From Candidatus Nanohaloarchaea archaeon (lineage in GTDB: Archaea > EX4484-52 > DAOVKX01), in contig DAOVKX010000019.1 of assembly GCA_030631505.1 (NCBI GenBank), forward strand, positions 1-14,454: 14,454 nucleotides of DNA. Reading direction: 5' to 3'. The notes beneath the pieces are model-generated. The model worked only from the letters and a program-made list of their open reading frames with translations. It did not search any database and had not been told where the DNA came from. Shown here one piece after another: positions 1,169 through 9,196 of this stretch. Position 1 is the first letter of the stretch. The number at the start of each line of letters is the position of its first letter. The translations under genes and the position numbers were made by a program.

Positions 1169-1387
1169 TTACAGCGCTTTTTTCAGTTTCAACTCTGTAC
1201 CGTCCTTTAGTTTTATTGTTACATCAATTTCTTCAACCTGATCCAAAGATTTTAATGCGTTTTCCAAGCCGGACAAAACAGAATCAATTTTCCCTTCAAC
1301 AGTATCTGCTAGTTCTGTCTGCTTGCTCAAAAAGTTTTCTTTCTTCTTTTTTAGCTCTTCTTTAACATCAATAATTTTATCCGACAT
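1169..1387 (-). CDS. hypothetical small coiled-coil protein (72 aa)
   Basis: Complete ORF, charged and Leu-rich heptad-like sequence (EELKKKKENFLSKQTELADTVEGKIDSVLSGLENALKSL). Start codon preceded by GGTGAT SD inside a duplicated 52-bp cassette. No recognisable domain. Confidence 0.5.
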   Translation of the reverse strand: MSDKIIDVKEELKKKKENFLSKQTELADTVEGKIDSVLSGLENALKSLDQVEEIDVTIKLKDGTELKLKKAL

Positions 1388-1436
1388 ATAATCACCATTT
1401 AATATTAGTGTTCGTAGATTTAAGTTTTTTTGTTAA
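1385..1436 (-). repeat. 52-bp perfect direct repeat, copy 1 (stop codon of the upstream gene, then promoter/SD, then the ATG of the 72-aa gene)
   Basis: catataatcaccatttaatattagtgttcgtagatttaagtttttttgttaa is identical to 1853-1904. On the minus strand it reads TAA, then A-rich, then cttaaat (TATA-like), then atattaaat, then GGTGAT, then tat, then ATG. Confidence 0.9.
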
Positions 1437-1855
1437 CCCATTAAATATTCCGAAGTTTCATTAAGCGTTATTTTTCCCAATTCAGAGAAAAAGTTCCTTA
1501 TTTGCTCTTTTTCTTTAATGGCAAGGTCTTTACCTTCATATGCTTTTGTTAACGCATTTTTTATTTTCTCTAAATGCTTATAAGGGTTTTCTTCAATAAC
1601 CTTTTGGCGTGTTAAGTTACATAACACTTCGGTATTATATCTATGATTAGTAAAAATTTGCGGGTTGCCACACAACCCATTATTCATTAAATCTTTAGCT
1701 CTTTTAGTGCTATCAATCTGAGCAATTCCTCTTTCTATCAGGTCATAGGGTTCTTTATTTTTATAACTCTCTTTGCAAAAAGCTTTAACCAATTCGTCAG
1801 ATAAGAAACCAACATTTAATGAGTCTGTAATTTCAAGGGCAGCGTGTCTGTTCAT
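1433..1855 (-). CDS. hypothetical protein (140 aa)
   Basis: Complete ORF. Its TAA stop lies in repeat copy 1 and its ATG in repeat copy 2, so it is flanked on both sides by the identical 52-bp cassette. No recognisable motifs. Confidence 0.5.
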   Translation of the reverse strand: MNRHAALEITDSLNVGFLSDELVKAFCKESYKNKEPYDLIERGIAQIDSTKRAKDLMNNGLCGNPQIFTNHRYNTEVLCNLTRQKVIEENPYKHLEKIKNALTKAYEGKDLAIKEKEQIRNFFSELGKITLNETSEYLMG

Positions 1856-1904
1856 ATAATCACCATTTAATATTAGTGTTCGTAGATTTAAGTTTTTTTG
1901 TTAA
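1853..1904 (-). repeat. 52-bp perfect direct repeat, copy 2 (stop of the 103-aa gene, then promoter/SD, then the ATG of the 140-aa gene)
   Basis: Identical to 1385-1436 (read directly from the sequence). Confidence 0.9.
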
Positions 1905-2212
1905 AAATTACCTTTCATTCCATTATCAATAAATTCTTTCATTTGCTTAATTTTCCATTCTATATAGTCTTTATTATCTTCATTGTTTGTATTGAGAGGA
2001 TTCAAGTCTCTGTTTGATTCCTGGACTGGAAGATGAAGACCGGATTTATAAATAATTTCTGAAAATTTATCTTCAGAAGCGCGCTCTACATTATCGGATG
2101 TGACAATACCGAACATCACATTGTTAAATTCATCATCATCAAGGATTTTCAGGTACAAAACGTGTCCTTCATGTTCATCCAAAAAATAGCTTTTGCCCAC
2201 CTGCAATTTCAT
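1901..2212 (-). CDS. hypothetical protein (103 aa)
   Basis: Complete ORF, acidic, no recognisable motifs. Divergent from the 2296 ORF across a TATA-rich spacer (tttatataaacaaaacatatataaag). Confidence 0.45.
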   Translation of the reverse strand: MKLQVGKSYFLDEHEGHVLYLKILDDDEFNNVMFGIVTSDNVERASEDKFSEIIYKSGLHLPVQESNRDLNPLNTNNEDNKDYIEWKIKQMKEFIDNGMKGNF

Positions 2213-2261
2213 ATTATTATTCCTTGTTTAAACCATTAAAAATCTTAGTTAGTGTTTATAT

Positions 2262-2285
2262 AAACAAAACATATATAAAGTTTGA
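2262..2285. promoter_or_regulatory. Divergent promoter region with two TATA-like boxes (tttatataaa / atatataaag)
   Basis: AT-rich spacer between minus-strand gene start 2212 and plus-strand gene start 2296. Archaeal TATA-box-like octamers. Confidence 0.35.
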
Positions 2286-2295
2286 CTTTTAAAGA

Positions 2296-2616
2296 TTGCC
2301 TATGAGGGCTATATTAATTACCTTTTCAGCAAAGTCTTCAAAATTTAATTCAGCTTATGAGAGAAACCAATTTTACAGGGAGCTTTATGGCTGGAAACAA
2401 ATAATAATAAGGAATTACAGAAGGTATGAATATCAAAAAAGTGGACTGATGGATGAGATACCCCACATAAAAGTTGACAAGAGCGTTTTCATTGTTGCAA
2501 GAAATAATTTGGAACGATTAAGAATGTTTTTTAACAAGTGGGATGATAAAACGAGATTCAGTTCCTTTGAAATAAAGATAAATAAAGAGGAAGCCAAAAC
2601 AATAAAAGTGGAGTGA
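2296..2616 (+). CDS. hypothetical small protein (106 aa) translationally coupled to cdc48
   Basis: Complete ORF ending 4 nt before the cdc48 ATG. Alternating beta/alpha pattern (AILITFS, FYRELYGW, QIIIRNY, KSVFIVA). No confident family assignment. Confidence 0.5.
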   Translation: MPMRAILITFSAKSSKFNSAYERNQFYRELYGWKQIIIRNYRRYEYQKSGLMDEIPHIKVDKSVFIVARNNLERLRMFFNKWDDKTRFSSFEIKINKEEAKTIKVE

Positions 2617-2620
2617 TGTT

Positions 2621-4879
2621 ATGTCTGAGAACGAAATTCAGTTAAGGGTGGGGGAGATACCCTCGAATGCGCAGAGCGATATTGGTGTTGGGATAGTGCG
2701 GCTTGATGTTAAGATACTGCATGAGCTTGGTTTACGGGAAGGCGATGCTGTAGAGATTGAGGGCAAAAGGAAAACAGGAGCCATTGCATTAAGGGCGTAT
2801 CCTAATGATGTTGGACTGAATGTTGTGAGAATGGACGGTTATATGAGAAGAAACTCCGGAACGAGCATTGGCGAGAAAATTACAATTAAGCCGCTGGAAC
2901 TCAAAGAGGCAAAAAAAGTTACAGTTGCTCCTGCTGAGAAAGGCATAATGGTTCAGGTTCCCGGGGAGCAGGTAAAACGGGCGCTGATGGGGCGGATTGT
3001 TGCAAAGGGCGATATAGTTGTGCCTGCAACAAGAAGAAAAGAAGCTTTCGGGGATTTCTTCGGGATAGATTTTGATGAGTTATTCGGGGGTTTTGGCTTT
3101 GGCGAGACCCGGTTTATAATTGCGGGCACGGCGCCCAAGGAAATATGCAAGATTACTGACCTGACAGAGTTTATTGTCAAGCCAAAAGCAGTGGATATAA
3201 AGGAAGACCAGCTTATGTCCACGGGTATAACTTACGAGGACATAGGTGGTTTGCATGAAGAGGTGAAGAAAGTCAGGGAGATGATTGAACTTCCTTTAAA
3301 GCACCCTGAACTGTTTAGCCGGCTGGGCATTGACCCGCCAAAAGGAGTTCTTCTGCATGGGACGCCTGGGACAGGCAAGACCCTGATTGCAAAGGCAGTT
3401 GCAAATGAGTCCGGGGCAAGTTTCTATTCAATTGCAGGGCCTGAAGTTATGAGCAAATGGTATGGCCAGTCAGAGGAAAATCTAAGGAACATTTTCAAGG
3501 AAGCGCAGGAAAATGCGCCCTCAATAATCTTTATAGATGAGATTGATGCGCTGGCTCCGAAACGGGAGAATGTTACCGGGGAAGTTGAAAGAAGAGTTGT
3601 CGCGCAACTGCTTGCTGTGATGGATGGCCTGCAGGCAAGAGGTGATGTGATAGTCATTGCCGCAACAAACATACCAAATTCAATAGACCCTGCACTGAGG
3701 CGACCGGGAAGGTTTGACCGGGAAATAGAGATAAATGTTCCGAGCAGGAGAGGAAGGAAGGAAATTTTGCAGATACATATGAGAGGGATGCCTCTTGGAA
3801 AAGATGTTGATGTTGACGGTCTTGCTGAAATAACCCACGGGTTTGTCGGCGCTGATTTGTCAGCTCTGGCAAGGGAAGCTGCAATGAGCTCTTTGAGGAG
3901 GATTCTGCCGGATATAAACCTGAAGGATGAGAAGATACCGCGGGAAGTTCTGGAAAAACTGGAAGTGACAAACAAGGATTTTAAGAACGCTCTTTTGGTT
4001 GTTGAGCCGTCTGCGATGAGAGAGGTTCTTGTTGAAATTCCAAAACTTAACTGGGATGACATCGGTGGACTTGACGAAGCCAAGCAGTACCTGAAGGAAA
4101 TGGTTGAATGGCCATTGAAACATCCTGATGCATTTAAGCGGATGGGCATAACGCCGCCCAAGGGCATTCTGCTTTACGGCCTGCCAGGGACAGGCAAGAC
4201 TTTACTTGCGAGAGCTGTTGCAAATGAAAGCAAATCCAATTTTATAGCTATAACCGGCTCCGAGGTGTTTTCCAAGTGGGTCGGCGAATCAGAAAAAAGA
4301 GTAAGGGAGGTTTTCAAGAGAGCAAGGCAGGTAGCGCCTTCAATTGTGTTTATCGATGAGATTGATGCTGTGGCACCTAAAAGAGGACACTCTCATGATT
4401 CAGGGTCTGCAGACCGTGTGGTTAACCAGATTTTGAGTGAGCTGGATGGATTAACCGGTTTGAGTGGTGTTGTTGTCATTGCGGCGACAAACCGGCCTGA
4501 CATAATAGACCCGTCGCTTTTGAGACCCGGCCGATTTGACAGGCATCTTTATGTTCCTGTTCCTGACAAAAAGACAAGGAAGAAAATATTTGAAATCTAC
4601 ACCAAAGATATGCCATTGGATAAAGGTGTAAACATAGACAACCTTGTTTCAAAAACAGAAAATTATGTCGGGGCAGACATCGAATCTGTCTGCAGGGAGG
4701 CGGCAATAAATGCTTTAAGGAAGGATATAAAATCAAAGAAAGTTACAAAAAAGGATTTTGAAAACTCCCTTGAACGAGTAAAGCCTTCTATAAGAGGAAA
4801 CGACGTTGAGGAATACAAAAAAAGAGTCAGCACAACAAAAGAGCTGTCAGTTTCCAATGACATTGATTATGTCGGGTGA
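2621..4879 (+). CDS. cdc48: Cdc48/VCP/p97-like double AAA+ ATPase
   Basis: 752 aa. N-domain (double-psi barrel-like). D1 Walker A GTPGTGKT and Walker [11 protein letters not shown]2 Walker A GLPGTGKT and Walker [13 protein letters not shown] regions. SD GGAGTGAT upstream of the ATG. Confidence 0.95.
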
Positions 4880-4910
4880 GATTGAGGGTTTTTGGTAATG
4901 TTGTTATGCC

Positions 4911-4932
4911 TAATCCTCAAAAAAGAGGATTA
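4911..4932 (+). terminator. Hairpin (8-bp stem taatcctc/gaggatta, 6-nt A loop) downstream of the cdc48 stop, after an oligo-T run at 4889-4893
   Basis: Perfect inverted repeat read from the sequence. The oligo-T immediately after the stop is a typical archaeal termination signal. Confidence 0.35.
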
Positions 4933-5009
4933 AAAAGATAATAATTGGGTCGTTAAGTGTGTTGTAAAGTTAACGGGGCTTTATAAATAAAAAATTATAA
5001 AATATCTTT

Positions 5010-5780
5010 ATGAAAAAATCTAATTATAAAATGAAAATTAAAGCCTTGAGAATAGATGAAGAAAAGAGAAGAAGAATAGCAACCAATTCTTCAGAATTAA
5101 GGAAACGAGCTTATGAAGAAGCTATTTCATGGAAAGGTGGAACACTTTCAGATAAAAAATCCTATCTTATGTATGAATATTCTAATTATAAAATAGTTCT
5201 TAAAAAACCTGGAAAAGAGTCTCCTATAGAATATAATCGATGTACGTATAAAGATAGAACAAAGGGAAATAATCCTAACGACATGACTCCGACGCTTATA
5301 AAAGATGGAGAAATTCATGAAAATAAATTAGGATTTGATAATATCTTTGAGATGATTCATTCAATAAAAGATGAACGGGCACTTGAAATATTAGGAACTA
5401 TACTTTTTAGGATGGCTTATATGTTAGAATATAAAAATAATGAAGAGGGAAAGGTAAGATTAAATATCTCTGAAGAGGGCTTAAAAATCTTAGAAGATAA
5501 ATGCCCACTAGTCAAAGATATCCCGATAAAAGTTTTTTTAGCAATGTTGGAAATAATTTCTCTCAATGAAGATGTTAAATATCACACTTTGGGTTATAAT
5601 GACAATTTTAAGAATGGAACCGGGAAAAGAAATAATCTTCTCACATATGTAAGACTTATTGCAGTTCTTTTAGAGAGAGAATCATTTTTCTCATTTGCTG
5701 GTTCTTTTGCAAGACCGCCTGTTGGAATTTCATCTATATCAAATTCAAAGGCATTTAAAATATTTCCAGATTTAGTTTAA
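5010..5780 (+). CDS. hypothetical protein (256 aa); candidate restriction endonuclease partner of the adjacent C5-MTase
   Basis: Complete ORF in very low-GC DNA. Convergent with the MTase, with 6 nt between stop codons. No recognisable catalytic motif, so the R-M role is inferred from context only. Confidence 0.5.
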   Translation: MKKSNYKMKIKALRIDEEKRRRIATNSSELRKRAYEEAISWKGGTLSDKKSYLMYEYSNYKIVLKKPGKESPIEYNRCTYKDRTKGNNPNDMTPTLIKDGEIHENKLGFDNIFEMIHSIKDERALEILGTILFRMAYMLEYKNNEEGKVRLNISEEGLKILEDKCPLVKDIPIKVFLAMLEIISLNEDVKYHTLGYNDNFKNGTGKRNNLLTYVRLIAVLLERESFFSFAGSFARPPVGISSISNSKAFKIFPDLV

Positions 5781-5786
5781 TAAAAA

Positions 5787-7016
5787 TTAATCTAATTTTA
5801 AAGAAAGTTCTTTTCCAATTCTTTCTATAACTCCAATAACTAAAGCATTTCCCATAAGAAAAGCTCTTTTTATATTTGTGCAACCTTTTGTATGGTTGTC
5901 GGGAAACATATTTAATCTTTCAAGTTCTAAAGGCATTAATCTTCTCAATCTCCCATTTTCAGTTTTTACTACATGCTTAAATCTTGAAGGTGTAGAACCA
6001 CCTTCTCCAGTAATTATTGTTCTGGAAGGCTTATCTAATGAATCGGGGAAAATCATTGCACCTTCATTATAATTATAATAAAAATTTCGACTTTTGTTAA
6101 ATCGTTTTTCTCTTTTTGCACCCTTAAGATATTCCCATTTTTCATATTCTCCATTCACAAAAAATTCTTCAGGTATTTTTTCTTCAGGTAATACAATATC
6201 TCCCAAAGTAATTCTCTCTCCATCATAATCTGGAAAAACTTTTGCAGTAAATATCTTTCTATCAATTATAATACCACAATTTTGAAATGGACTAAATTTT
6301 CCTTTTTTGTTGAAATTATTTGTAACTTCAATTAAGTTTCCATCTATGTTGAATTTTTTTTTGAAAAAGATTTTATTTATATTTATGCCAAATGCTTTTG
6401 CTAAAGTTCCATTATTAAAAATCCATTTCTCAGAATTATCTTTTTTAATTTCTTTATATATTGATGATTTTTTATGGTATCCCATAATAAAAATTCTTCT
6501 TCTTCTTTGAGGCATCCCGTAATCTGCTGCATTAATTATTCTCCATTCCACAATATAACCTAAATTAGATAATGATGATAAAATAATTGCAAAATCTCTC
6601 CCCCTCTGACTTGCTGGAGAACTCAATAATCTATCAACATTTTCTAATAAAATAAATTCTGGTTTATTTTTATTATCTCTTAAAATTCTATGGATTTCCC
6701 ACCATAAAACTCCTTTTTTTCCAGTAATTCCTTTTGATTGACTTAAACATTTAGCCACAGAATAATCTTGACATGGAAAACCACCAACTAAAATATTGTG
6801 TTCGGGGAGTTCATCAATAGAAACTTTTGCGATATCCTTATTTGAGTGGTTTTCTTCTCCAAATCTTTTTATATAAATTTCAGAGGCTTCTTGACTTTTT
6901 GTTTTTGGCTCCCATTGATTACTCCAAACCATTTCAAATTTTTCAGAAGCATTGGTTAATCCAATTCGAAACCCACCAACTCCGGCGAATAATTCAACAA
7001 TTTTAATTTTTTCCAT
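5787..7016 (-). CDS. DNA (cytosine-5)-methyltransferase (Dcm/M.HhaI-type)
   Basis: Motif I FAGVGGF, motif IV GFPCQDYS (PCQ), motif VI LLENV, motif VIII QRRRRIF, motif X GNALVIG. 409 aa. Confidence 0.9.
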   Translation of the reverse strand: MEKIKIVELFAGVGGFRIGLTNASEKFEMVWSNQWEPKTKSQEASEIYIKRFGEENHSNKDIAKVSIDELPEHNILVGGFPCQDYSVAKCLSQSKGITGKKGVLWWEIHRILRDNKNKPEFILLENVDRLLSSPASQRGRDFAIILSSLSNLGYIVEWRIINAADYGMPQRRRRIFIMGYHKKSSIYKEIKKDNSEKWIFNNGTLAKAFGININKIFFKKKFNIDGNLIEVTNNFNKKGKFSPFQNCGIIIDRKIFTAKVFPDYDGERITLGDIVLPEEKIPEEFFVNGEYEKWEYLKGAKREKRFNKSRNFYYNYNEGAMIFPDSLDKPSRTIITGEGGSTPSRFKHVVKTENGRLRRLMPLELERLNMFPDNHTKGCTNIKRAFLMGNALVIGVIERIGKELSLKLD

Positions 7017-7022
7017 TTTTTT

Positions 7023-7172
7023 CTACCTTTTTTTATTAAATATAGTTTTTAGTTTATCCCAATAGGGGCTTTTGCATTTAGGACAAACTATAGGTTTATC
7101 GTTTCCATCTCTCGGTATCCAAGTATGTCCACATCTTGAGCATTTGTAACCTTTTAGCATTATTTCTGGCAT
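7023..7172 (-). CDS. 49-aa zinc-ribbon protein (CxxC-x13-CxxC) immediately upstream of the MTase; not in the supplied ORF track
   Basis: Manual translation of the minus strand gives MPEIMLKGYKCSRCGHTWIPRDGNDKPIVCPKCKSPYWDKLKTIFNKKR*. Its stop is 6 nt before the MTase ATG. Confidence 0.5.
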   Translation of the reverse strand: MPEIMLKGYKCSRCGHTWIPRDGNDKPIVCPKCKSPYWDKLKTIFNKKR

Positions 7173-7248: not shown

Positions 7249-7386
7249 ATGAAAGGAATTGAGATATACTACAATTTCATAACCAAGCATCAGGCAATTA
7301 AGAAATGCCTTTATGAGCTGGCTGTTTCTGAATTGAAATTAAATTCTGAGAATAAGTGGTTGGAATTGATTAAATTAGCGAAGTGA
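7249..7386 (+). CDS. possible small ORF (45 aa), MKGIEIYYNFITKHQAIKKCLYELAVSELKLNSENKWLELIKLAK
   Basis: First ATG in an open frame downstream of the TATA-like box. No SD and no homology recognised, so it may be non-coding. Confidence 0.25.
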   Translation: MKGIEIYYNFITKHQAIKKCLYELAVSELKLNSENKWLELIKLAK

Positions 7387-7476
7387 TGAAAGACATGATT
7401 AAGAAGTTCTTAAAAAATAAAGCTTAAATACTATTTTTACCAATTATATACTATAATAAGTTGAATGTGGTAATAA

Positions 7477-7656
7477 ATGGTAAAAATAGCCAAAAATAAC
7501 CGAATTACAATCCCTTCTGAAATAATGAATCTAAAAGGTTGGAGTGAAGGTACAGAGCTTATATTTGTTCCATTTAACCAAGATGCAAAAGACACACTGG
7601 AAAGAGAAACACCGATTGTTCTGAACGAAGTAATAAGGAAAGAGCGAGTTAAATGA
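7477..7656 (+). CDS. AbrB/SpoVT/MazE-family swapped-hairpin DNA-binding protein (59 aa), antitoxin/regulator-like
   Basis: MVKIAKNNRITIPSEIMNLKGWSEGTELIFVP matches the K-x-ITIP-x-EI-x-LG...G-x-L pattern of SpoVT_AbrB domains. The stop overlaps the next ATG (ATGA). Not in the ORF track because it is under 60 aa. Confidence 0.7.
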   Translation: MVKIAKNNRITIPSEIMNLKGWSEGTELIFVPFNQDAKDTLERETPIVLNEVIRKERVK

Positions 7657-7961
7657 TAGAAAAAAACGATAACTATTTAAACTTTAATGTTACACATAGT
7701 AGCATGGGAGAATTATTAAGTAGTCTAAAGGAGAAAGAAGAAATAAGTAATATTTGTAAAGAACGTTCGTTAAACATCATTTTATTAAAAAATTTATTTT
7801 TTTGGAGTGCACAAGGGTTTAATAATGTTGAGTTAGCAAGGAAATTAGGTGTTCATAGAGTTACAGTTCAAAGATACAGTAGCACATTAAAGAAAATGAA
7901 AGTAGAAGAGTATCATAAATTATTTAATTACATATCTAAAGGATTACGTAATGGGGTATAA
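7653..7961 (+). CDS. HTH DNA-binding protein with sigma-70 region-4-like helix-turn-helix (102 aa)
   Basis: LSSLKEKEEISNICKERSLNI....GFNNVELARKLGVHRVTVQRY resembles sigma70_r4 / LuxR-type HTHs. 4-nt ATGA overlap with the AbrB-like gene. Its stop is 2 nt before the next gene. Confidence 0.55.
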   Translation: MIEKNDNYLNFNVTHSSMGELLSSLKEKEEISNICKERSLNIILLKNLFFWSAQGFNNVELARKLGVHRVTVQRYSSTLKKMKVEEYHKLFNYISKGLRNGV

Positions 7962-7963
7962 AG

Positions 7964-9121
7964 ATGAAAAGCGAACTGAAACTTAAAAGCGGAAAAATTA
8001 TTAATTTACCATCAAGAATGTTTAGGAATAAAGATTTATCAGAAATGAATTTGGACTATGTAGAAAATAAGATATATTTCAACAAATATGATGAAAAAAA
8101 AGGATTTATCTCATTTAATAAAGAAGTTGAGAAAAATATGGCTATAATTAATTATGTGGATTGTTCTACTACTCCATTCTCAAAAGAAGAACTGGTTTCT
8201 TCTATCAAAAAACAAATAGACACTAATAGTGATTTCATTATTTTGCCATACTTCAAGGATGAGAATGAATATGATTTAAACATAAAAATTGAATTGGCAG
8301 GTAAAATAAAAACCAGATATAATAAAGAAATAATATTGGAAATATCATATAAAGCAACACCGCAGATGATTAAGAAAGTTATTAAACAATCTGAAAACTT
8401 TGATATTTTAGCTGTATTTTATGGTGTGCATTATGGAAGATTTCCATCATTTAGACTATTATGTGAGAAAATTTTTCTCTTTAAACAAGTCACAAATGGT
8501 AAAGTTTTTTGTACTGGTGTCCCCCTTGTATTCTCAGGAGATGAATATTCAAAATATTCCTATCTATTCCCAATATGGTCTTTAGTTTGTGATGGGTGGG
8601 TAAAAAATTGGAAACGTGGCGGAGGTGCTAAAGAAATACGCTTGGTGGATTATGAAGATTATAGAAATAAGAATTTTATGGGGTGGTGTGAAACACATAA
8701 ACCTAATGATATAGTGGAGTCTGTAAATATGAGTGTTAAAGGGTTATTTGGAGATGGACACGCTATGAAACAAGTAAGAGAACAATACATAGGGATGCTT
8801 AGAGATGAAGTTTTAAATGAGGTTTATTCAATAACGCCTAAGAGTATTGGAACTTATTTGAGAGATAAACCAAGAATATATATTGCTCTAATTTTAGATT
8901 TATACAAACAGAAATTAATTATACAAAAAGTCCGTGAAGCTAATTGGGCAAAAACATATGCTGAAAATGACATACGATTATTGGAAAAGGAGCTATTTAA
9001 TTTTTTAAGCCCCTCTGAAATAGAAGAAAAAATAGAGAAGAATATTGTTACTCTCGTTTCAAAAGAACAGAAAGTTCCCATCTCTGTTTTGATTAACGAA
9101 GTTCAAAATTCTCGATTTTAA
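7964..9121 (+). CDS. hypothetical protein (385 aa), third gene of the AbrB-HTH operon
   Basis: Long uninterrupted ORF at ~23% GC. No Walker, DDE, HNH or PD-(D/E)xK motif that I can identify confidently. Confidence 0.55.
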   Translation: MKSELKLKSGKIINLPSRMFRNKDLSEMNLDYVENKIYFNKYDEKKGFISFNKEVEKNMAIINYVDCSTTPFSKEELVSSIKKQIDTNSDFIILPYFKDENEYDLNIKIELAGKIKTRYNKEIILEISYKATPQMIKKVIKQSENFDILAVFYGVHYGRFPSFRLLCEKIFLFKQVTNGKVFCTGVPLVFSGDEYSKYSYLFPIWSLVCDGWVKNWKRGGGAKEIRLVDYEDYRNKNFMGWCETHKPNDIVESVNMSVKGLFGDGHAMKQVREQYIGMLRDEVLNEVYSITPKSIGTYLRDKPRIYIALILDLYKQKLIIQKVREANWAKTYAENDIRLLEKELFNFLSPSEIEEKIEKNIVTLVSKEQKVPISVLINEVQNSRF

Positions 9122-9196
9122 TTTTTTAAGCCCCTTTAAGTTTACAACAAACCAATATTTATAATTTTTATATACCCGAAATCAAATAGTATCTTT

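Follow-up and report, generated by a model that had tools for sequence, protein, structure and literature searches.

The tRNA-guanine transglycosylase (TGT) superfamily has recently been extended from tRNA housekeeping to DNA modification (DpdA) and immune signalling (Cap10). TGTs carry a β-sheet lid, and TGT and DpdA share a structural zinc motif, CXCX2CX22H, just past the barrel (PMC10164549). Cap10, from the type IV cyclic-oligonucleotide-based antiphage signalling system (CBASS), is a zinc-less, remodelled TGT-family protein, so such proteins exist (10.1101/2025.04.06.647259). Here, we describe a three-gene operon (positions 7477–9121, forward strand) of a Candidatus Nanohaloarchaea archaeon; it lies in a 14 454 nt stretch of contig DAOVKX010000019.1 (assembly GCA_030631505.1), which was analysed at full length and is called the window below. 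The operon encodes a 59-residue AbrB/SpoVT-like protein (7477–7656), a 102-residue helix–turn–helix (HTH) protein (7653–7961) and a 385-residue protein (7964–9121), all on the + strand. The last of these is, by its modelled fold, a very divergent, zinc-less member of the TGT superfamily. The TGT-like fold, the constant DNA-binding partner and the location of relatives in mobile islands rich in restriction–modification (R-M) genes make it probable, in our view, that this is a module, not described before, for the base modification of nucleic acids, for defence or for addiction; the 'defence or addiction' role suggested in a first-pass annotation of the sequence is still plausible.

The AlphaFold2 model of the 385-residue protein, computed from a 15-sequence alignment, has a predicted local distance difference test (pLDDT) value of 92.7 and a predicted template-modelling (pTM) score of 0.91. 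It starts with a three-stranded sheet (E3-6, E12-15 and E17-20), continues as an eight-stranded α/β barrel and ends in a short post-barrel hairpin followed by a six-helix domain; the N-terminal sheet and the hairpin/helical part resemble, by analogy, the TGT lid and the Ins8 insertion as described in PMC10164549. The closest structural relatives of the (β/α)8 barrel are TGT-type enzymes, given here in rank order with the two values of each match: bacterial TGT (PDB entry 3UNT; 14.7, 263), archaeosine TGT (ArcTGT; 1IQ8; 14.4, 285), QTRT2 (6FV5; 13.8, 249), Cap10 (9NTN; 12.9, 239) and DpdA (7UI4; 12.7, 234). Foldseek was less decisive, with Cap10 in second place (E = 9e-4) amid isopropylmalate synthase, DHODH and galactanases and with TM values of ∼0.3, and a Foldseek search of BFVD gave no convincing viral relative. 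The protein had been described in the first pass as having no motif that could be placed. This holds at the sequence level, as there is no match in Pfam, NCBIfam, PADLOC, PHROGs or the PDB sequences and the family profile also finds nothing among the PDB sequences, but not at the fold level, where a triose-phosphate isomerase (TIM) barrel of the TGT superfamily is seen. A second, independent pointer to TGT kinship is hinted at by P0054, the most divergent protein of the family (profile E = 3.6e-13), which has a CNCDAC motif with a His ∼24 residues further on. The motif aligns to residues ∼252–258 of the window protein, just past the barrel, and thus has the position and spacing of the TGT zinc motif; the core family, with the window protein, has lost the TGT zinc site, as Cap10 did.

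The HTH gene and the gene for the TGT-like protein travel together. A gene for a ∼100-residue HTH protein lies directly upstream of the ∼385-residue gene in 21 of the 21 loci that retain upstream sequence (the loci compared were 17 in a first set, then L047, L048, L049, L050 and the P0012 contig), mostly overlapping it by 4–41 nt or abutting it within 2 nt, and chance adjacency is rejected on this count. The pairing also holds in a subgroup that is 20–24% identical to the window protein, the members overall being 20–50% identical; the HTH partners are 36–60% identical and have an invariant recognition helix, LGVHRVT(I/V)QRY. Judged by the gene sequences, the HTH protein and the ∼385-residue enzyme constitute a two-gene, translationally coupled module in which the HTH protein is the obligate partner. 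The gene in front of the pair varies: it encodes a ribbon–helix–helix-like (RHH) protein of 44–58 residues in L018, L023, L025, L027, L048 and L049 (with weak Pfam support, RHH_1 E = 1e-3), a winged-HTH protein in L006 and L009 and a zinc-ribbon protein in L012, and it is absent from L007, L017, L021, L029 and L050. As the pair is constant while the first gene varies, what is conserved is the pair, with an exchangeable gene for a small DNA-binding protein in front of it. The first-pass annotation had instead proposed the AbrB-like, HTH and 385-residue proteins as one three-part architecture and had suggested a search for its conservation in gene neighbourhoods; the pair passes this comparison and the trio does not. 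Two copies of the module appear to be decayed, that in L025 being truncated and that in L029 frameshifted.

The family is rare and is confined to DPANN archaea. It numbers 15 proteins in a database of 5.8 billion sequences, and an exhaustive profile search of 1.84 billion representatives yielded 51 cluster representatives at E ≤ 1e-3, of which ∼28 are full length. Word-indexed searches returned only two proteins with the distant subgroup and likewise only two with the HTH protein. Relatives occur in four of 185 579 species genomes, three of them Aenigmatarchaeota or Woesearchaeota (both DPANN) and the fourth labelled 'archaeon' only; a further 11 metagenome contigs carry family members, and every relative of the module with a taxon assignment is from DPANN. 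A well-known housekeeping family would have spoken against the first-pass proposal, and neither the matches nor this distribution point to one. A housekeeping replacement of ArcTGT was also considered and is rejected, as the family is far too rare. Our literature search found no published description of the family, and we regard it as an undescribed, DPANN-restricted branch of HTH-partnered, zinc-less TGT-like enzymes.

The 102-residue protein is a tetra-helical HTH protein with weak LuxR/GerE, NarL, HTH_11 and ECF-sigma-type matches, all below cut-off (for GerE, 17.9 bits against a cut-off of 23.5, E = 2.4e-3). Eleven of 17 members of the HTH family weakly match GerE or Sigma70_ECF, and a profile of the 17 orthologues finds the LuxR-type domains of StyR/NarL in the PDB (E = 0.017–0.04); the earlier description of the protein as similar to sigma-70 region 4 holds as to the HTH, with family matches that are weak. 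The family alignment shows conservation over the whole length of a protein that looks fully structured, and its isoelectric point (pI) is mostly ∼9. All 17 orthologues also weakly match Pfam DNA_pol3_delta_C (PF21694) over residues ∼26–94 (best E = 1e-5), a match that is more consistent across the orthologues than that to any single HTH family.

Reading the sequence confirms the gene structure given in the first pass, with three + strand open reading frames (ORFs), an ATGA overlap and a 2 nt gap: the ATGA at 7653–7656 is shared by the first and second ORFs, the stop codon of the second (TAA, 7959–7961) is followed by the gap (7962–7963) and the third starts with the ATG at 7964. The first ORF is also AbrB/SpoVT-like, with scores slightly below the curated cut-offs: 27.0 bits against 28.3 for TIGR01439 (E = 2.8e-6) and 21 bits against 24.7 for Pfam MazE_antitoxin (PF04014; E = 3.3e-4); the match is close and spans residues 1–31. 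No homologue of the AbrB gene was found at any other locus compared and its slot is filled there by other proteins, from which the AbrB-like protein looks like a swappable operon regulator, presumably a repressor, rather than the dedicated antitoxin of the effector. Upstream of it, a 17 nt inverted repeat (16/17 matches; arms 7431–7447 and 7473–7489) has a TATA-like box between its arms and extends over the AbrB start codon, making it a candidate operator. Most related loci have palindromes or direct repeats of their own at the matching promoter position; these are locus-specific, and no operator motif common to the loci was found for the conserved HTH protein. Such promoter palindromes would fit an operon controlled by the product of its own variable first gene. 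Nothing was found in the window by scans for Rfam families, tRNAs and terminators.

The mobile and defence-like surroundings recur among relatives, and the defence-island context first noticed in the window is thereby upheld. Six of ∼17 loci have R-M or DNA methyltransferase genes no more than ∼5 kb from the module: a C5 methyltransferase in the window, an N4/N6 methyltransferase with an MmeI-like enzyme and GmrSD in L007, a type III R-M system in L010, a C5 methyltransferase in L025, HinfI with a D12 methyltransferase in L049, and a PDDEXK nuclease, a C5 methyltransferase and BpuSI-like and Eco57I-like enzymes on the P0012 contig. Transposases adjoin the module in seven loci, counting the remnant in the window (DDE_Tnp_1 in L004, L006, L026 and L049; IS240 in L012 and L048). 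Methyltransferases are absent from about half of the loci (L004, L006, L009, L017 and L050), and the surroundings are purely housekeeping in L017 (ribosomal proteins and primase) and L050 (NAC and TctA).

Some further genes near relatives are worth recording. L049 (102–2143) and the window (5010–7016) have a like layout of a nuclease (+), a methyltransferase (−), a small gene (−) and an operon of small protein, HTH protein and enzyme (+), with R-M systems that are unrelated to each other (HinfI and a D12 methyltransferase in L049, an orphan ORF and a C5 methyltransferase in the window); R-M cassettes seem to be a place where the module settles. Near the module, always on the − strand, a gene for a Cas4-like PDDEXK_1 nuclease (215–222 residues) is found in L018 (800–1447), L004 (14625–15293) and the P0012 contig (1914–2573); the L018 and L004 proteins are 40% identical (E = 2e-52), the P0012 copy starts 12 nt past the large gene, and the nuclease may be an occasional partner. 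In one subclade, a gene for an 86–87-residue protein (80–84% identical) is divergent from, and just upstream of, the RHH–HTH–enzyme operon (L018 1444–1704, L027 179–442 and L049 2140–2403, all − strand), and the L049 copy occupies the slot of the zinc-ribbon gene of the window described below. L009 has three separate genes annotated as Ribosomal_L22e (107, 132 and 107 residues) at 1226–4975, within 4 kb upstream of the module, which is odd for an archaeal contig.

Set beside the described systems, the module is not a Dpd system, a type IV CBASS or a canonical AbrB-type toxin–antitoxin (TA) pair, which agrees with the view taken in the first pass that no named system fits. DpdA resembles the 385-residue protein in having a helical insertion past the barrel, and it is likewise encoded in mobile or defence contexts; it acts on DNA, as the module probably would, and in bacteria requires a DNA-binding partner, the ParB-like DpdB, much as the enzyme described here has its HTH partner. 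It differs in that no sequence similarity is detectable, in having the CXCX2CX22H motif that the 385-residue protein lacks and an Asp where the latter has a Glu at the putative base-recognition position, in lacking the N-terminal β-sheet, and in its partner, a ParB-like ATPase rather than a 100-residue HTH protein; no dpdB, dpdC or preQ0 genes lie near the module, which is found in DPANN only. ArcTGT and bacterial TGT share the N-terminal three-stranded sheet, the barrel and a helical C-terminal part, but they are near-universal housekeeping enzymes with a zinc site, to which ArcTGT adds C-terminal C1–C3/PUA domains, whereas the family described here is rare, zinc-less, always paired with an HTH protein and found in low-GC mobile islands. 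Cap10 is likewise a zinc-less TGT-family protein in an immune or mobile context and acts while bound to a specific partner protein, just as our family has a constant partner; however, it has no sequence similarity to the family, the partner here is an HTH protein, and Cap9 (QueC-like), CD-NTase and effector genes are missing from the module. None of these genes was found in any locus with gene calls, and PADLOC gave no match. As for TA systems, no operon protein matched a PIN, MazF or similar toxin in Pfam or PADLOC, and the type II arrangement, an AbrB/MazE antitoxin conserved in its pairing with a toxin of known family, is not seen, the neighbour of the AbrB gene being the HTH gene.

The conserved residues offer a candidate pocket. 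A set of polar residues (N40, D66, S68, E100, K130, Y153/G154…G158, D229, D232 and K236) is nearly invariant and is located where strands end at their C-terminal side or after that point, and the spacing is similar to that of active-site residues in relatives: D66–E100 is 34 residues (35 for D95–D130 in DpdA), E100–K130 is 30 (32 for D122–K154 in Cap10) and K130–G154 is 24 (25 for H181–G206 in DpdA). We infer a pocket made up of D66/S68, E100, K130, the G154–G158 loop and D229/D232, its residues assigned from their spacing and their place on the strands and not from a superposition. Membership of the TGT superfamily is assigned by the modelled fold, sequence profiles and the zinc site giving a negative answer; for the three invariant Asp residues of the superfamily (general acid/base, base recognition and nucleophile) and its Gly-rich β6–α6 loop, the candidates by spacing and strand position are D66, E100 (a Glu), D229/D232 and G154…G158. 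A second conserved series, D90/K121/D147/K179/D210, is at the N-terminal ends of strands and is probably a structural salt-bridge ring. D210 was considered as the nucleophile and rejected: it sits at the N-terminal start of its strand within this alternating D/K series and is thus probably structural.

From the gene structure, the conservation of the pair, the fold, the rarity, the DPANN restriction and the mobile, R-M-associated context, we infer a substrate, a chemistry, a complex of HTH protein and enzyme and a biological role, as follows. The autoregulated operon would encode a TGT-fold enzyme that is guided by the HTH protein and acts on a purine N-glycosidic bond in nucleic acid, by cleavage or exchange; we put the probability of this model-based reading at roughly 40%. 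With an HTH protein that is basic in most cases and an enzyme pI that ranges from 5.4 to 9.4, the HTH subunit would supply the DNA binding, sequence-specifically, and recruit the enzyme to DNA. The enzyme would flip a purine base (a guanine or 7-deazaguanine) into the pocket on the barrel's C-terminal face and cleave the N-glycosidic bond, with the base then exchanged in the manner of DpdA or with an abasic or covalent lesion left as by a restriction-type glycosylase. Expression would be autoregulated by whichever small DNA-binding protein comes first, here AbrB on the palindrome at the promoter and start codon, and the module would be a passenger of mobile, insertion sequence (IS)-associated DPANN islands, often together with R-M systems. 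Its role would probably be self/non-self discrimination based on DNA modification, serving defence or anti-restriction. Since no queC/D/E, folE, dpdB, dpdC, Cap9 or CD-NTase genes accompany it, the enzyme would have to use salvaged 7-deazaguanines or another base, or act as a glycosylase; antiviral excision of modified guanines has a precedent in other folds (10.1101/2025.10.29.685425). A more specific version, which we advance only tentatively and consider somewhat unlikely as stated in full, is that a DPANN-only, zinc-less TGT-fold enzyme depends for its delivery to DNA on an HTH subunit that is separate but co-translated and, with no dedicated 7-deazaguanine biosynthesis genes, either writes a salvaged preQ0-type base or, as a restriction-type glycosylase, removes guanine or 7-deazaguanines from the DNA of invaders.

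Several observations weigh against an HTH-guided TGT-fold base-modifying enzyme. Pfam TGT (PF01702) is matched by none of 34 family members even at E ≤ 10, and hhalign against Escherichia coli Tgt, phage 9g DpdA and an eight-sequence DpdA alignment gave probabilities of <1%, leaving the family with no sequence-profile link to TGT. Neither the window protein nor the core family has the zinc site, the putative base-recognition residue is a Glu (E100) where TGT and DpdA have an invariant Asp, and the nucleophile is assignable only by superposition, with D229 and D232 as candidates. The pI of the enzyme is not consistently basic, and a crude single-sequence AlphaFold2 fold of a head-to-tail chain of HTH protein and enzyme was uninformative as to their packing (pLDDT of 39). 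The 7-deazaguanine genes queC/D/E and folE, as well as those for DpdB and DpdC, are found within 8–10 kb in none of the nine loci with gene and Pfam calls, and no family members were found in IMG/VR, the INPHARED phages or the PLSDB plasmids.

The same data can be read in other ways, of which a TA-like addiction module, somewhat unlikely in our view, has most to commend it. By analogy with omega–epsilon–zeta, it would have three tiers, a swappable AbrB or RHH repressor, an HTH antitoxin (as are HipB and PezA) and a TGT-fold toxin that would depurinate or mis-modify tRNA or DNA once its labile partner is lost, so stabilizing the mobile island. Omega–epsilon–zeta/PezAT and HipBA do combine a small repressor, a ∼100-residue partner and a large enzyme in overlapping genes, with promoter palindromes, a swappable antitoxin-type first gene and a mobile location. 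Here, small proteins with antitoxin folds come first in overlapping genes (AbrB in the window; RHH in L018, L023, L025, L027, L048 and L049), an HTH protein followed by a large enzyme in overlapping frames is the HipBA layout, candidate operators lie over the promoters, the HTH profile weakly matches HipB (E ≃ 0.1) and the L048 RHH protein weakly matches the Omega repressor (E = 0.05); the IS- and R-M-rich sites, patchy distribution and decayed copies are in keeping. The likeness is, however, one of architecture alone: the enzyme has neither a kinase nor a known toxin fold and belongs to no known toxin family, the known TGT-family proteins are modifiers and not toxins, and the AbrB/RHH gene is dispensable, several loci having no first-gene regulator at all. 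The HTH protein, moreover, looks fully structured, is conserved throughout and lacks the pattern of a DNA-binding domain with a disordered toxin-binding tail. A TIM-barrel enzyme acting on a small molecule (aldolase-, glycosidase- or synthase-like) and accompanied by its own transcription factor, with a TGT likeness that is generic, is unlikely. The Foldseek matches to isopropylmalate synthase, DHODH and galactanases at E-values like that of Cap10, the missing sequence-level link to TGT and the variable pI of the enzyme would all be expected from it, but the TGT-type CxCxxC…H of P0054 at the right place would not. Nor would the R-M and IS-element context, and no metabolic genes or transporters are common to the neighbouring regions of the loci; a metabolic enzyme is also not usually coupled so strictly in translation to a regulator that binds DNA.

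Two further possibilities turn on the partner and on the neighbouring methyltransferases. In a Cap10-like scheme, the enzyme would be directed at protein, transferring or reading a nucleobase adduct on the HTH or another protein and so controlling DNA binding by the partner. Cap10 is similarly zinc-less and remodelled to hold a protein partner, and the obligate small partner of our family is reminiscent of this, yet a QueC-like Cap9, a CD-NTase or an effector gene is present at no locus and the N-terminus of the HTH protein is not a conserved Gly-2-type handle, which makes this very unlikely. The least probable of the alternatives, for which we see hardly any room, is a restriction enzyme with a controller (C) protein, in which the HTH protein would time the expression of a TIM-barrel nuclease paired with the neighbouring methyltransferase. 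The classic arrangement for a C protein is a small HTH gene in front of, and overlapping, that of an effector; the HTH-then-effector overlap seen here fits it, and DNA methyltransferases adjoin the module in six loci. These methyltransferases are, however, of unrelated classes (C5, N4/N6, D12, type III and MmeI-like) and mostly already paired with a nuclease of their own, such as HinfI in L049, about half of the loci have none, and the fold of the 385-residue protein is not that of a known nuclease; the arrangement is thus not that of a type II R-M system with a C protein.

In the window, the operon belongs to a 4.2 kb low-GC island. The GC content is 29.2% for the operon and 28.9% for the island against 45.9% and 40.7% for the flanking CDC48 and Kef-type transporter genes; the first-pass figure of ∼23% was too low, although the tight coupling of the operon and its low-GC setting were described correctly and the contrast with the flanks is real. 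Horizontal acquisition of the island is supported. It also holds a C5 cytosine DNA methyltransferase (5787–7016, − strand; PF00145 E = 1.6e-65, TIGR00675 dcm E = 1e-70, PADLOC MTase_II E = 9e-165) and, convergent with it, a 256-residue orphan ORF (5010–5780, + strand) that is a candidate restriction enzyme and has no match in Pfam, NCBIfam, PADLOC, PHROGs, the PDB sequences or plasmids. The two had been called an R-M pair; with the methyltransferase confirmed and the partner matching nothing, this is half verified. A 49-residue zinc-ribbon protein (CxxC…CxxC; 7023–7172, − strand), with weak FmdB/MJ0042 zinc-ribbon matches, is divergent from the operon and is 56% identical (E = 8e-19) to a 73-residue protein of L012 (7507–7728), the gene for which is the first of that operon, directly upstream of and overlapping the HTH gene; on this similarity, the 49-residue protein may be another interchangeable regulator. 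Between it and the operon, a 45-residue ORF (7249–7386, + strand) is the C-terminal remnant of an IS6/IS240-family transposase, matching residues 318–333 of the 372-residue L048 IS240 transposase, with a YYNF..H.A motif (pairwise E = 2e-5).

The island is bounded by a candidate terminal inverted repeat of two 37 nt arms, complementary at 31 of 37 positions. The left arm (4957–4993) is in the intergenic region between CDC48 and the 256-residue ORF, exactly at the drop in GC content, and the right arm is at 9116–9152; 31 matches were reached in none of 60 composition-preserving block shuffles (maximum 30). The first 19 nt of the right arm (9117–9135) have an exact second copy at 8996–9014, which is 121 nt upstream and falls within the 3′ end of the gene for the 385-residue protein. 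No target-site duplication is visible at the island borders, searches of other loci gave no copy of the arms (two matches with four mismatches are at chance level) and a similar inverted repeat in L049 is explained by the alike 5′ leaders of flanking genes; for these reasons, the arms are only tentatively read as transposon ends.

The remaining genes of the window are archaeal housekeeping genes (RadB, CDC48, a NOG1-type GTPase, Hsp20 and Band-7) and a topoisomerase zinc ribbon. A second low-GC patch (1144–2616, 30.9%) contains four small orphan ORFs of 72, 140, 103 and 106 residues without family matches. The 140-residue ORF (1433–1855, − strand), the product of which faintly matches the N-terminal domain of Shedu SduA (E = 0.026), is flanked by a perfect 52 nt direct repeat (1385–1436 and 1853–1904). 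The sister assembly L002 (GCA_023135055.1), otherwise 99.98–100% identical, is without one 52 nt copy and the 416 nt between the copies, which is either a deletion/insertion polymorphism in the population or an assembly collapse.

The family described here would be a further independent recruitment of the TGT fold, one that has drifted past profile detection, has lost its zinc site and, where others have DpdB or Cap9, has an HTH protein as its obligate partner; it is confined to DPANN archaea, ultra-small symbionts for which the biology of defence and of mobile elements is almost unknown. If the pair is directed at DNA, it would represent a new class of DNA-directed TGT system, with two components and without precedent in archaea: a compact, two-protein and possibly sequence-programmable system for base exchange or base excision, which would raise the question of where genome-reduced symbionts obtain a 7-deazaguanine. 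If the enzyme is instead a toxin, it would represent a new toxin chemistry.

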